DNA of 64,000 nt from Escherichia phage vB_Eco-B1.1: sequence record ON871820, one strand, 5' to 3'. Of this stretch, positions 25,672 to 57,779 are shown in pieces. The notes beneath the pieces are model-generated. The model did not search any database. It saw only the letters and a list, made by a program, of their open reading frames with translations, and was not told the DNA's origin. Both the position numbers and the translations under genes were made by a program. Every line of letters begins with the position of its first letter. Positions within the stretch are counted from its first letter, which is position 1.

Positions 25672-25701
25672 GTTTACACGGGGTTTTAGTTGTGATACTA
25701 T
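25672..25701 (+). promoter_or_regulatory. early promoter cassette (GTTTAC -35, TGTGATACTAT -10)
   Basis: GTTTAC at 25672-25677 and TG-extended -10 about 17 nt downstream; followed by the CTATCAAAACAA motif and an RBS. Confidence 0.6.
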
Positions 25702-25737
25702 TACCCTATCAAAACAAATGAGTGATTGGAGAATAAA

Positions 25738-26046
25738 ATGAAAACATTTAAAGAATTTATCAATGAAGCGGCTGCGCCAAAGACATTCGTTATTAATACT
25801 CAGACGAGTCTTGACGATGAGTATGCAGAGGCAATTCTGAAGTCACTTGCTAAGAACGGCGTTGAAGTAATCGCCTCGGACTTTAAGAAAGGGGCTTCCG
25901 AGATGTTTATTTCTATAACTAAAGGATCTAAGGCTAAAATCAAATCATCATTCGGAGTTGCTCGTACCGATCAAATCGACAATCATGACTTTAAACAAAC
26001 TGGCGTTAAACGGCAGAACACAATTGCATCACGCGGAATAAAATAG
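25738..26046 (+). CDS. ipI: internal protein I-like (capsid targeting leader MKTFKEFINE)
   Basis: ATG at 25738 with GGAG RBS; N-terminal MKTFKEFINEA resembles the T4 ip capsid-targeting sequence cleaved after Glu; T4 ipI position (57B to tRNA). Confidence 0.6.
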   Translation: MKTFKEFINEAAAPKTFVINTQTSLDDEYAEAILKSLAKNGVEVIASDFKKGASEMFISITKGSKAKIKSSFGVARTDQIDNHDFKQTGVKRQNTIASRGIK

Positions 26047-26058
26047 TTTATAAAAACA

Positions 26059-26088
26059 GTTTACTTTTAGATAGGGTAGTGATACTAT
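26059..26088 (+). promoter_or_regulatory. early promoter cassette with flanking inverted repeat
   Basis: GTTTAC at 26059-26064, -10 GTGATACTAT; inverted repeat AGATAGGGTA/TACCCTATC brackets the -10. Confidence 0.6.
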
Positions 26089-26116
26089 TACCCTATCAAC
26101 TACAGAGGAGAATAAA

Positions 26117-26299
26117 ATGAAACGTTGTGAATTAATTCGAAATGTTGCTATTGCAATTTCTGCTTCCGCTTTTAGTTTTTCAATGTTTGTTGGATTTATA
26201 TGCGGATTATTAACTACAGCAGAAAACGTTTTTTCACTTGTAGTAGCATTTTTAATTGGTTTAATCGCTATCGTTATGGATAAAATTTCTAAAGGTTAA
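26117..26299 (+). CDS. small hydrophobic membrane protein
   Basis: 60 aa ORF, RBS AGAGGAG, two predicted TM stretches. Confidence 0.55.
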   Translation: MKRCELIRNVAIAISASAFSFSMFVGFICGLLTTAENVFSLVVAFLIGLIAIVMDKISKG

Positions 26300-26301
26300 T
26301 A

Positions 26302-26589
26302 ATGATTCTTTATGCGAAAGTATCGTCCGTTGAAAATGGATATAAATATGATCAAGATGCGGCTAAAGCCTTGATTGATGATTATGGCATTTTAACATGT
26401 TTTGAAGTTGAAAAGGTTTACATTGATCGTTCATCTTCGCAGGTTAAATTAGTAAAGGAAGACCGTAAATTTAACACAGTAAATTTTGATTTCTTTATTG
26501 AAACAGAAAAAGGTCCTCTTGAATATGATATTTTCAAGAATCCTTTGGGTCTTGAATGCATCGTAAGTATGTATCATCATAAATGGTAA
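26302..26589 (+). CDS. hypothetical protein
   Basis: 95 aa ORF immediately downstream, same strand. Confidence 0.55.
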   Translation: MILYAKVSSVENGYKYDQDAAKALIDDYGILTCFEVEKVYIDRSSSQVKLVKEDRKFNTVNFDFFIETEKGPLEYDIFKNPLGLECIVSMYHHKW

Positions 26590-26686
26590 ATATGCTTTAA
26601 GAATTATTTGTTATTATTAACTCATACCGCACTGATTAATACCCTCTATCATCAAGGGTTCTTGTTTGAGAGCCTTTGTTAATAAT

Positions 26687-26759
26687 TGGGAATTAGCCAA
26701 GTTGGTAAGGCACTGGATTTTGATTCCAGGATGCAAAGGTTCGAGTCCTTTATTCCCAG
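26687..26759 (+). tRNA. tRNA-Gln (anticodon TTG)
   Basis: Cloverleaf by hand: acceptor TGGGAAT/ATTCCCA, anticodon loop TTTTGAT, T-arm GGTTCGAGTCC. Confidence 0.8.
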
Positions 26760-55250: not shown

Positions 55251-56547
55251 TCATGCTGAATATAATGATGAAGTAAATACACTTTTCAGCTCTAATGGAC
55301 AAACTCCTTTTGTAACAATTACATTTGGTACGGGAACTGACTGGACTGAACGAATGATTCAGAAAGCAATTCTGAAAAATCGTATTAAAGGTCTCGGTCG
55401 TGATGGGATAACTCCTATTTTCCCTAAGCTTGTTATGTTCGTTGAAGAAGGTGTTAATCTTTATAAAGACGATCCGAACTATGATATTAAGCAGCTTGCT
55501 CTAGAGTGTGCAAGCAAAAGGATGTATCCTGACATCATTTCGGCTAAGAACAATAAAGCTATCACCGGCTCATCTATTCCTGTTTCTCCAATGGGTTGCC
55601 GTAGTTTCTTGAGCGTATGGAAAGATTCGACTGGTAATGAAATTCTTGATGGACGTAATAATCTCGGTGTTGTAACACTGAATCTTCCTCGTATCGCATT
55701 AGATTCTTATATTGGAACACAGTTCAATGAACAGAAATTTATCGAATTGTTCAATGAACGAATGGATTTATGTTTTGAAGCTTTGATGTGTAGAATTAGT
55801 TCCTTAAAAGGAGTTAAAGCTACTGTTGCTCCTATTCTTTACCAAGAAGGTGCATTCGGGGTTCGTCTTAAACCTGATGATGATATAATTGAGTTATTTA
55901 AAAACGGTAGAAGTTCAGTGTCCTTAGGATACATTGGTATTCACGAATTGAATATTCTTGTCGGTCGTGATATTGGACAAGAAATTTTAACTAAAATGAA
56001 TGCTCGTCTTAAGCAGTGGACTGAAAGAACTGGTTTTGCTTTTAGCTTGTATTCTACTCCTGCTGAAAACCTTTGTTATCGCTTCTGTAAACTTGATACC
56101 GAAAAATATGGAAGTGTAAAGGATGTTACCGATAAAGGTTGGTACACTAACAGTTTCCATGTTTCAGTAGAAGAAAATATTACTCCGTTTGAAAAGATTT
56201 CTCGTGAAGCGCCATATCATTTCATTGCGACAGGTGGTCACATTTCTTATGTTGAACTTCCTGATATGAAAAATAACTTAAAGGGTCTTGAGGCCGTATG
56301 GGATTATGCTGCACAACATTTAGATTATTTTGGTGTTAATATGCCAGTAGATAAATGTTTTACATGTGGAAGTACCCATGAAATGACTCCTACTGAAAAC
56401 GGATTTGTTTGTTCTATTTGTGGAGAAACTGATCCTAAAAAGATGAACACAATAAGAAGAACATGTGGTTATTTGGGAAATCCGAACGAACGCGGATTTA
56501 ATCTCGGTAAAAATAAAGAAATCATGCATAGGGTTAAACACCAATGA
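55251..56547 (+). CDS. nrdD: anaerobic ribonucleotide reductase NrdD, exon 2 (5' boundary approximate)
   Basis: Frame open from about 55216 to 56547; C-terminal glycyl radical motif RRTCGYLG and Cys-rich zinc site CFTCGSTHEM...CSICGETD. Confidence 0.8.
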
Positions 56548-57014
56548 ATTACGATAGATTTTATCCCTGTGATTTTGTGAATGGCCCTGGATGCAGGGTC
56601 GTTCTTTTCGTTACAGGTTGTTTGCATAAATGCGAAGGGTGTTATAATAAATCAACATGGAATGCTAGAAATGGTGTTCCATTCACTGGTGAAACACTAG
56701 AACAATTAATTGAATGTTTGAATAATGATTATATAGAAGGATTGACTATAACCGGAGGTGACCCTCTTTATCCTGATAACCGAGATGTTGTTCATTGCAT
56801 TGTTCAAACAGTAAAAAATCTTTATCCGAATAAAAGCATTTGGTTGTGGACAGGATATAAGTTTGAAGATATTAAACAACTAGAAATGCTTAAATATGTT
56901 GATGTTATTATTGATGGGAAGTATGAGAAAAATCTTCCGACCAAAAAGCTGTGGCGAGGATCAGATAATCAGCGACTTTGGTCAAATACCGATGGGGTGT
57001 GGAAACATGATTAA
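56544..57014 (+). CDS. nrdG: anaerobic RNR activating enzyme NrdG (radical SAM)
   Basis: 156 aa; CxxxCxxC cluster (CLHKCEGC); ATGA overlap with nrdD. Confidence 0.85.
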   Translation: MNYDRFYPCDFVNGPGCRVVLFVTGCLHKCEGCYNKSTWNARNGVPFTGETLEQLIECLNNDYIEGLTITGGDPLYPDNRDVVHCIVQTVKNLYPNKSIWLWTGYKFEDIKQLEMLKYVDVIIDGKYEKNLPTKKLWRGSDNQRLWSNTDGVWKHD

Positions 57015-57128
57015 ATTGAATTATATTATGGACACTATAAATGATATGATTTTTCATTTTGGTCCAGAATTTTATTCGCAATACAGTTTAGTGCTTATCA
57101 ATGCTTGGTTAATCAATTAAGGGTAAAT

Positions 57129-57341
57129 ATGTATAAATTTCGTAAAGGTTTAGCTGATTTTCTTACAACCGTAACGTTCTTTTTGTTTATGGCAGTTGGA
57201 GCTATTTTCCTTATTCCTTTTATTGCTATATTTTTCGTGATTAGTTTGATTTCTCCAGAAAAAGGCTTATCTTCTAGCGAATTCAATGAGCGTCTGGATA
57301 AAATTACTAACAAGCTGAATGCTGCTCTTAGTAAGGAATAG
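57129..57341 (+). CDS. small membrane protein
   Basis: ATG at 57129; 70 aa with a hydrophobic core LTTVTFFLFMAVGAIFLIPFIAIFFVISLI. Confidence 0.5.
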   Translation: MYKFRKGLADFLTTVTFFLFMAVGAIFLIPFIAIFFVISLISPEKGLSSSEFNERLDKITNKLNAALSKE

Positions 57342-57343
57342 TT

Positions 57344-57652
57344 GTGAAACAAAACAAGATTGAAGTCTATGGAATTCCAGATGAAGTAGGTCGTTGTCCT
57401 GGATGTCAATCAGTTACAAAACTTCTAAAGGAGCTCAATGCTCCTTTTACTTTCTATAAAGTTCTTACAAATAATGGTAAGATTGAGTATGATCGTCCAC
57501 TGATTGTATCTCTTGCTAAACGCGCTGGATTCACATCTCTTAACATTCGTTATCCAGTCATTTTCATTAATGATTCTAGACAAAAGAACATTAAACACTT
57601 CAAAGAAACTCTCATTTCACTTGGATATGATAGAGATATCATAGAAGACTAA
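57344..57652 (+). CDS. nrdH: glutaredoxin-like redoxin (NrdH-like)
   Basis: GTG start after AGGAA; 102 aa with CPGC redox motif; adjacent to nrdG. Confidence 0.6.
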   Translation: MKQNKIEVYGIPDEVGRCPGCQSVTKLLKELNAPFTFYKVLTNNGKIEYDRPLIVSLAKRAGFTSLNIRYPVIFINDSRQKNIKHFKETLISLGYDRDIIED

Positions 57653-57653
57653 G

Positions 57654-57676
57654 ACGGGCCCTCTGGGCCTTTCTTT
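57654..57676 (+). terminator. terminator-like hairpin
   Basis: GGGCCC-TCT-GGGCC then TTTCTTTCT. Confidence 0.5.
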
Positions 57677-57749
57677 CTCACATTCTGTATATTACCATTC
57701 TAAGCTATCGTTCCCTTCTTATCATTCCCTAAAATAATTTCACAAAGTT

Positions 57750-57779
57750 GTTTACAACAAGTTCAAACTGTGGTATTAT
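57750..57779 (+). promoter_or_regulatory. early promoter
   Basis: GTTTAC at 57750-57755, TGTGGTATTAT -10; the upstream ATAATTTCACAAAGTTGTTTACA is duplicated at 25655-25679. Confidence 0.6.

Follow-up and report, generated by a model that had tools for sequence, protein, structure and literature searches.

The units considered here are short repeated cassettes in the genome of Escherichia phage vB_Eco-B1.1 (sequence record ON871820), of which a stretch of 64,000 nucleotides, referred to below as the window, was analysed. A preliminary description had listed 13 copies and regarded them as promoter-early stem-loop (PeSL) elements, which drive early genes and also act as recombination sites at module boundaries. 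The window is that of a Tequatrovirus, ie a T4-like phage, and between 25 and 45 kb it shares about 95% identity with hundreds of T-even phages that infect E. coli and Shigella. It is colinear with T4 in reverse orientation, running from about 80.0 to about 35.0 kb of that genome, and from about 22.2 kb onwards the T4 early/middle genes, 57B and the ipI locus through gene 46, are encoded on its + strand. The cassettes sit in the classic non-essential "hyperplastic" early region of Tequatrovirus. Gene order there varies, being e-ip-denV-ip-ipIII in the window and in phage SF2-1, e-ipIII-ipII-denV in T4 and e-Ip4 in RB14.

A recognisable cassette was found at all 13 coordinates, always on the + strand, with one coordinate shifted by a single nucleotide (the cassette begins at 29387, not 29386). 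The -35 sequence GTTTAC, which had been ascribed to each copy, is present at ten sites; at 29387 it reads GTGTAC, and at 29069 and 44930, where the listed coordinates mark a -10-proximal block, T[A/G]GTACTATACAACTATCAACT, there is no -35. The spacing, put earlier at about 17 bp, is constant in the 11 complete copies at 18 nt from GTTTAC to TAnnnT, or 17 nt when TTTACN is taken as the -35. The TGn extension of the -10 is present at 12 of the 13 sites rather than all, and the full combination that marks T4-type early promoters (-35, 17-nt spacer to TAnnnT, and TGn) at 11 of the 13, one of them with GTGTAC. Upstream of the -35, the adjoining 25 nt have a mean A+T content of 0.74, against 0.65 regionally (p = 0.001). 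The reported leader motif is real in that TATC lies exactly 5 nt past the -10. However, because it is held at a fixed distance from the -10 and its A, 7 nt past the hexamer, occupies the expected +1, it belongs to the start-site region of the promoter consensus. There are nine exact matches to TAYWAT-N5-TATCRR in the window, and all nine are cassettes. The leader itself is mostly 21-22 nt long.

Separation of these sites from the background required a matrix specific to the cassette, since a scan with the generic sigma-70 consensus was inadequate (72 and 85 matches, compared to 73.8 and 87.1 expected). With a leave-one-out position weight matrix the 11 complete sites scored 10-36 bits, while the best non-cassette site in 128 kb of both strands reached 9 bits; shuffled sequences gave no cassette-matrix sites. 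A chance origin of the cassettes was rejected on the basis of these scores and shuffles. The largest families of direct repeats in the region come from within the cassettes, and the longest exact blocks that these share are 20-27 nt, eg 25652-25678, which is identical to 57730-57756. As had been suggested, some open reading frames (ORFs) are extended at the N terminus by translation of the cassette, although there are six of these and not four. Their annotated starts, at 25726, 29022, 40980, 44907, 46346 and 49360, are to be replaced by the ATGs preceded by a Shine-Dalgarno sequence (SD) at 25738, 29121, 41025, 44973, 46406 and 49390.

The early-promoter class of T4 has been characterised since the late 1980s, and reportedly was described by Liebig and Rüger in 1989 and by Miller and colleagues in 2003. 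When the same matrix was applied to T4, near-identical sites were recovered 5' of ipI, trna.4, e.8, regB, mobD.5, mobD.2, nrdC.10, nrdC.8, nrdC.4 and 55.6, the colinear positions being 73939, 73572, 70696, 62797, 58780, 57990, 55384, 53943, 50973 and 41706. The denV and ipII promoters of T4 were recognised by eye. Nearly all the complete cassettes of the window have a T4 orthologue, and the cassettes of the two genomes lie in the same places, 5' of the ipI locus, trna.4, e.8, denV, ipIII, regB, mobD.5, mobD.2, nrdC.10, nrdC.8, nrdC.4 and 55.6. The two sets have in common an A/T-rich UP region, GTTTAC, a 17-nt spacer, TGn, the -10 and an extra consensus in the start region, and there is no essential difference between them. 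What sets the window apart is that its e.8 and nrdC.10 promoters are truncated, its e.6 promoter is degenerate, its denV is a remnant and the order of ip genes and denV is changed. The experimental start sites of the T4 orthologues are known here through reviews; the public T4 record has no promoter features annotated, and a literature search for genome-wide mapping of T4 start sites found nothing usable. The T4 regB promoter is called 'a typical early promoter' in the T4 literature, and T4 early promoters as a whole are unusually information-rich, with the UP/-35/TGn/-10 architecture plus additional consensus (Hinton 2010, PMC2988021). The near-identity of the orthologues, regB included, supports the earlier view that the units are early promoters, and on their sequence they are T4-type early promoters, a class already known.

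The ribosome-binding site (RBS) of the cassette is equally familiar, as it is the RegB/S1 cleavage consensus GGAGAAUAAAA. The published form of that consensus, GGAGRAYARAA (Durand et al. 2006, PMC1702504), has four exact matches in the window, and all four are cassette SDs (25728, 26107, 29111 and 44963); as in RegB/S1 targets, GGAGAAUAAAA in these four cassettes ends at the A of the AUG. With one mismatch the sites at 36625 (regB) and 41806 are added. GGAG is present in the SD of 11 of the 13 cassettes, ie in the four with the exact consensus and in seven more. Each component of the cassette is thus a known element of T4 early gene expression.

We consider it highly probable that the cassettes are sigma-70-dependent early promoters, each joined to a short leader and then to the translation-initiation region of its own gene. 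Such a unit would consist of A/T-rich upstream sequence, GTTTAC(A/T), a 17-nt spacer and TGn plus TAYWAT, with transcription starting in (C)TATC; the start would be followed by the leader, an SD that is usually GGAG with an A-rich run, ie the RegB/S1 site, and then the ATG. Host RNA polymerase would fire the cassettes immediately upon infection, and RegB would later cut the SD and so shut off the messages. Repetition of the sequence would then arise because an information-rich promoter/RBS consensus is reused in one orientation, and ectopic gene conversion between copies may add to the similarity. The inverted repeats are probably not part of the promoter as such.

Six of the complete cassettes contain no significant hairpin. 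The ip-gene cassette (25652..25740) has its -35 at 25672-25677, its -10 at 25696-25701 and a predicted +1 at 25708. Its SD, GGAGAATAAAA, occupies 25728-25738, the ATG is at 25738, and the gene that it would drive is the ip gene substituting for T4 ipI; its 27-nt upstream block, TAAAATAATTTCACAAAGTTGTTTACA, is the one repeated at 57730-57756, in the 55.6 cassette (57730..57812). The copy with GTGTAC (29387..29455) lies 5' of a 58-aa ORF substituting for T4 e.7. The ipIII cassette occupies 33780..33840. At mobD.5 (40934..41027, -35 at 40967) a terminator-like hairpin with a UUCG loop, 40934-40951, and a T-run stand upstream. The -35 of the nrdC.4 cassette (49332..49392) overlaps the nrdC.5 stop codon and its true ATG is at 49390; the ATG at 49360 falls within the -10 region, which accounts for the N-extended ORF.

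Each unit was folded as RNA from the -35 to the ATG and compared with shuffled sequences. Significant hairpins were obtained at five of the 13 cassettes, 26059 (z = -2.96), 33349 (-3.74), 36578 (-5.12), 41758 (-4.77) and 46348 (-4.67), and the other eight did not fold significantly better than shuffles. The inverted repeats described earlier at four of these are where they had been placed and are slightly longer, but the structured cassette at 41758 had been missed. Two geometries are apparent. At the trna.4 cassette (26059..26119) and the mobD.2 cassette (41758..41818), and also at ipI, ipII and ipIII of T4, the extended -10 forms a loop of 8-10 nt and the hairpin lies about 20 nt upstream of the SD, which remains uncovered. 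The trna.4 arms are 26070-26078 and 26089-26097 (9 bp, 10-nt loop), and those of mobD.2 are 41765-41778 and 41787-41800 (14 bp with two G.U pairs, 8-nt loop). At denV, regB and nrdC.8, the -35/-10 spacer contributes the 5' arm, an anti-SD sequence, and the SD itself forms the 3' arm, with minimum free energies of -19 to -25 kcal/mol. The denV cassette (33349..33435) has 10-bp arms at 33355-33364 and 33393-33402. For regB (36578..36637) the DNA repeat of 12 bp, 36587-36598 with 36616-36627, extends to 15 bp as RNA, the anti-SD arm being 36584-36598 and the SD arm 36616-36630. At nrdC.8 (46348..46408) the DNA repeat, 46361-46367 with 46394-46400, is only 7 bp and alone is not significant; as RNA, with G.U pairs, it becomes a 13-bp helix of 46360-46372 with 46388-46400, with the SD inside the 3' arm.

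The 5' arms of denV, regB and nrdC.8 end at 33364, 36598 and 46372, and the predicted +1 positions are 33385, 36614 (between the arms) and 46384, so that the transcript from each cassette's own promoter would lack the 5' arm. In all five hairpins transcription is predicted to start either between the arms or inside the 3' arm, so that the structures would form only in RNA reading through from upstream. No terminator-like site was found between the ipIII promoter and regB. Intrinsic termination by the five hairpins that span promoters was judged unlikely, as no U-run comes after any of them. Only one of the 13 cassettes, 40967, has a terminator-like hairpin (40934-40951) immediately upstream. 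The label of promoter-early stem-loop is accordingly a weak one for the set as a whole, with five of the 13 folding, one with an upstream terminator-like hairpin and none with a U-run.

The regB upstream regions were then collected from IMG/VR and from GenBank phages of other genera; IMG/VR supplied 11 regB loci and five nrdC.4 loci, and more distant promoters were taken individually from GenBank phages. A helix of 10-15 bp between spacer and SD is present at regB in Tequatrovirus, two IMG/VR clades, Gelderlandvirus STP4-a, Kanagawavirus Kosakonia 305 and phage CUA3, whereas real spacers of other promoters, paired with the same SD regions as a control, gave a mean of 5-6 bp. The inner sequences of the regB helices are unrelated to one another (TTGACTG/CAGTCAA, TAGTTG/CAACTA, GTAAGT/ACTTAC, TTTTAGT/ACTAAAA and GTAG/CTAC), and pairing has been retained through compensatory changes in at least six lineages. 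RNAalifold applied to a MAFFT alignment of 11 regB promoters found no pairs, because MAFFT had put the stems out of register, and the alignment was anchored on the SD instead. In that form, which was fitted to the best helix of each sequence and is biased to that extent, five consecutive positions past the SD core have two or three Watson-Crick pair types, with 6-8 of 8 sequences paired at each. The denV stems of T4 and of the window likewise have different sequences, both fully complementary, and where the stems of T4 regB, window mobD.2 (two places) and nrdC.8 (two places) are imperfect, the sense strand has G.U. At regB of Karamvirus, Jiaodavirus and Roskildevirus, a GC-rich inner hairpin that carries the -10 in its loop is clasped by a short anti-SD/SD helix on the outside. 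This composite (loci L034, L037 and L039) joins the two geometries that are separate in the window.

The stems are best read as RNA-level structures that would close the SD on read-through transcripts. More specifically, it is possible, though we put it forward only tentatively, that in a subset of the early promoters (regB, denV, nrdC.8 and, weakly, e.8) an anti-SD in the -35/-10 spacer pairs with the downstream SD, so that the cistron is translatable and cleavable by RegB only on transcripts from its own promoter. At denV, regB and nrdC.8 the anti-SD would have been placed in a spacer that is otherwise unconstrained. Read-through transcripts should, given this pairing, be untranslatable and resistant to RegB, and promoter-proximal ones open; the T4 literature has it that RegB does not cut structured GGAG, and the structure would therefore also block RegB on read-through RNA. 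Unlike a typical RegB/S1 site, then, that of the three SD-in-stem cassettes is predicted to be double-stranded in such RNA. No translation of the cistron would be expected from the abundant RNA that reads through from upstream. Confinement of translation to the first minutes would fit the tight control to which, according to the same literature, RegB production must be subject.

For the analysis of breakpoints the window was compared with T4, SF2-1, RB14, T6 and ten IMG/VR loci by means of chained BLAST matches, interruptions of at least 25 nt being scored. Between 22.2 and 62 kb there were 56 clusters of endpoints, some of the breakpoints being shared by descent, so that the counts are not of independent events. 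Ten of the clusters fall inside cassettes, which make up 3.7% of the region (p = 4e-5 compared to a uniform distribution); the remaining 46 are elsewhere, many at homing-endonuclease genes (mobB, mobC, mobD and seg-like), at the tRNA block or at plain junctions. Because indels naturally fall between genes, the comparison was restricted to gene junctions, and the effect became modest: a break is found at 9 of 13 junctions with a cassette and at 27 of 73 without (p = 0.03). When only junctions whose spacer reaches 40 nt or more were compared, the enrichment was not significant (9/12 with a cassette, 11/20 others, p = 0.23). Six cassettes, 29069, 40967, 41758, 46348, 49332 and 57750, had no internal break in any of the 14 comparisons.

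Certain junctions are nevertheless clearly recombinant within a cassette. In T6 (locus L031, 23285-23375) gene e is joined to the regB cassette and the ip/denV/vs.8-vs.3 block, about 3.5 kb, has gone; the junction runs from TCTATAAAGTT directly into GTTTACTTTTCCTC, and the crossover lies within GTTTACTTT, which is common to the post-e cassette and the regB cassette. The ip gene at 25738 has been swapped for T4 ipI between cassettes 25672 and 26059, the homology stopping 20 nt into the conserved capsid-targeting codons and returning in the next cassette. There is a break at 29384, beside the cassette with GTGTAC, relative to T4, T6 and several IMG/VR loci. Half cassettes occur at 29069, 29606 and 44930. 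The first, at e.8 (29045..29123), has lost the GTTTACa of the T4 promoter by deletion and has TAG in place of TGG, while its -10, leader and RegB-type SD are kept. The second, at e.6 (29606..29675), did not appear in the earlier list; it is degenerate, GTTTAC being kept and the -10 part foreign, with breaks at 29612-29657. The third, at nrdC.10 (44906..44975), has a UUCG hairpin (44915-44928) in place of the UP region, -35 and spacer of T4 and retains TGn/-10, leader and RegB-type SD, with breaks at 44927-44963 in five relatives. The nrdC.8 cassette of locus L018 is a mosaic in which a -10/start patch of the trna.4 type, TATTATtaccctatc, is set in a unit of the nrdC.8 type, a pattern suggestive of ectopic gene conversion between two cassettes that lie about 20 kb from each other. 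The regB cassette of phage CUA3 (locus L036, 170-245) is identical to the T4 denV cassette (65356-65418) at 54 of 62 positions, stem included, although its RegB protein is only 59% identical to that of the window and the flanking genes are distantly related; the cassette would have been either conserved or exchanged between genes and genera.

Crossover from cassette to cassette would sometimes occur because the copies share identical blocks of 9-27 nt, and such events may delete, replace or reorder the intervening genes and leave hybrid or half cassettes behind. T4 recombines experimentally at microhomologies of 6-10 bp (T4 literature), so that repeats of 9-27 nt suffice and no dedicated mechanism is needed. 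The cassettes would appear to be used as crossover points opportunistically, shuffling not being their defining function. The description of them as recombination sites that mark module boundaries holds for the T6 e-regB junction, the ip swap and the half cassettes; most boundaries lie elsewhere and the enrichment over other long spacers is not significant.

Several observations weigh against the explanation given here, for the promoters, the stems or the crossovers. The start sites in this phage are predicted from spacing. The hairpins at 26059 and 41758 do not touch the SD and have no clear role in the model. No anti-SD/SD pairing is seen at regB in P896, phi1_146055, the Aeromonas phages, Krischvirus or PSTRCR_127, and the bias of the SD-anchored alignment has already been mentioned. 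In 16 of 21 cassettes folding is stronger for the sense than for the antisense strand (Wilcoxon p ~0.01), a result confounded by the G-rich sense strand and by relatedness. The non-significant result for long spacers and the shared descent of some breakpoints have to be counted on the same side.

Among the alternatives, the one that fares best, although we regard it as rather unlikely, is that the hairpins serve RNA stability or processing, either as 3' barriers that protect the upstream cistron after cleavage by RegB or RNase E, or as attenuators of read-through. It would accommodate the hairpins at 26059 and 41758 and those of T4 ipI, ipII and ipIII, with their uncovered SDs, and the stem-loop of a phi1 PeSL did reduce expression of a downstream lacZ like a strong terminator (Arbiol et al. 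2010, PMC2839356). However, what has been conserved of the helix in regB, denV and nrdC.8 is the pairing of anti-SD with SD, an outer helix of this kind clasps the inner hairpin in Karamvirus, Jiaodavirus and Roskildevirus, and a U-run for intrinsic termination is lacking.

The interpretation offered in the preliminary description is not new, being the published PeSL hypothesis. Repeats of the ip locus were proposed as shuffling linkers by Repoila et al. (1994), as reported in the papers that cite it. PeSLs were named in RB49/phi1 (Arbiol et al. 2010, PMC2839356) and extended to the T4/PST pair with the consensus TTTACW-N17-TAYWAT, "half" elements near indels being described in phage PST (Comeau et al. 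2014, PMC4122927). The cassettes of the window resemble these elements and the ip-locus repeats in being repeated early-promoter units with an SD, in hyperplastic regions and beside indels; they have the same consensus as the PST/T4 elements and, like those of PST, degraded half copies near indels. In its strong form the hypothesis makes them dedicated mobile promoter-terminator linkers, whose stem-loops terminate transcription and whose recombination, mini-circles included, is the main driver of shuffling in hyperplastic regions. Hybrid and half cassettes, cassette-bounded replacements, the ten break clusters inside cassettes and the UUCG terminator hairpin directly upstream of one cassette are what it would predict. 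We nevertheless consider this form unlikely. Most copies here, unlike PeSLs, have no stem-loop, and the five that do have it across the promoter, without terminator features, where those of PST are drawn 'just upstream'; a terminator upstream was seen once in 13. Controlling for intergenic length leaves a weak association with breakpoints, with 46 of 56 clusters elsewhere and six cassettes unbroken, and a special element is unnecessary in a phage that recombines at any microhomology of 6-10 bp. Covariation of the stems, with its G.U pairs, points to a role in RNA and not to a recombination signal.

A DNA-level role, with the repeats acting on the promoter as cruciforms or operators, so that a regulator or structure-specific nuclease bound there causes shut-off or recombination hot spots, has in its favour that they bracket the -10, where a repressor or cruciform would block RNA polymerase, and that early-promoter shut-off is described in the T4 literature as not completely understood, but it is very improbable, as the stems differ wholly between genes and genera and so offer no common protein-recognition sequence, their imperfections are G.T on the sense strand only, ie C.A on the other strand of a cruciform, and the coincidence of 3' arm and SD in three cases would go unexplained.

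The proposed closure of the SD on read-through RNA has a close parallel in T4. Hairpins that sequester the RBS and have a promoter inside them are known for e, soc, 49, I-TevI and segB (reviews PMC3014915 and PMC2988022), genes which the reviews say 'are all late genes'. At denV, regB and nrdC.8, as in these, a stable hairpin contains the SD in its 3' arm, the transcript from the gene's own promoter is predicted to lack the 5' arm and longer transcripts from upstream are predicted to be closed. The difference is that the internal promoter is here an early one, and the effect would be to limit translation to the first minutes, not to delay it. No description of an anti-SD hairpin at an early promoter was found in the accessible literature, which did not include the primary regB and denV papers, and its novelty is uncertain.

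Some further features of the region were recorded. The denV promoter and SD of the window are intact, but the gene behind them is a pseudogene (33406-33509) with an internal deletion of 297 nt relative to SF2-1; the last 90 nt or so of denV remain, and because of the deletion the ORF is a 9-codon remnant (33406-33435, MTRPKRPLR*). The capsid-targeting motif MKT(Y/F)xEF opens five ORFs, at 25738, 28448, 33065, 33516 and 33838, of which the one at 33065 starts in an ATGA overlap with the gene e stop codon and lacks its own promoter. Terminator-like hairpins, CCCCnnCCnAAAGGTTGGGGCTTTTTGG, which are 90% identical at 28384-28414 and 28920-28950, flank the ORF 28448-28909 (153 aa), the N-terminus of which, MKTYAQFLMTEA, resembles the capsid-targeting sequence of internal proteins; T4, RB14 and others differ from the window by an indel of this segment, which, bracketed in this way, is a unit bounded by terminators and not by promoters. 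Intercistronic hairpins with a UUCG tetraloop are found at 40934-40951, 44915-44928 and 60984-61003; the motif was first noted in T4 intercistronic regions. Within nrdD, a segment of 1,047 nt (54220-55268) with a 256-aa ORF (54471-55241) is present in the window and in T4, where it is the I-TevII intron region, and is absent from RB14, T6 and several IMG/VR relatives.

For annotation of this genome the analysis fixes the starts of six N-extended ORFs and flags a dead denV and three decayed promoters. It also tempers the PeSL idea for T-even phages, in that the use of cassettes as crossover points is no greater than their length and repetition predict. If the anti-SD pairing operates as proposed, it would impose a hard time window on the toxic nuclease RegB and would be the inverse of the hairpins at the late promoters of e, soc, 49 and I-TevI, adding a simple extra layer to the control of T4 early genes and to the autoregulation of RegB.

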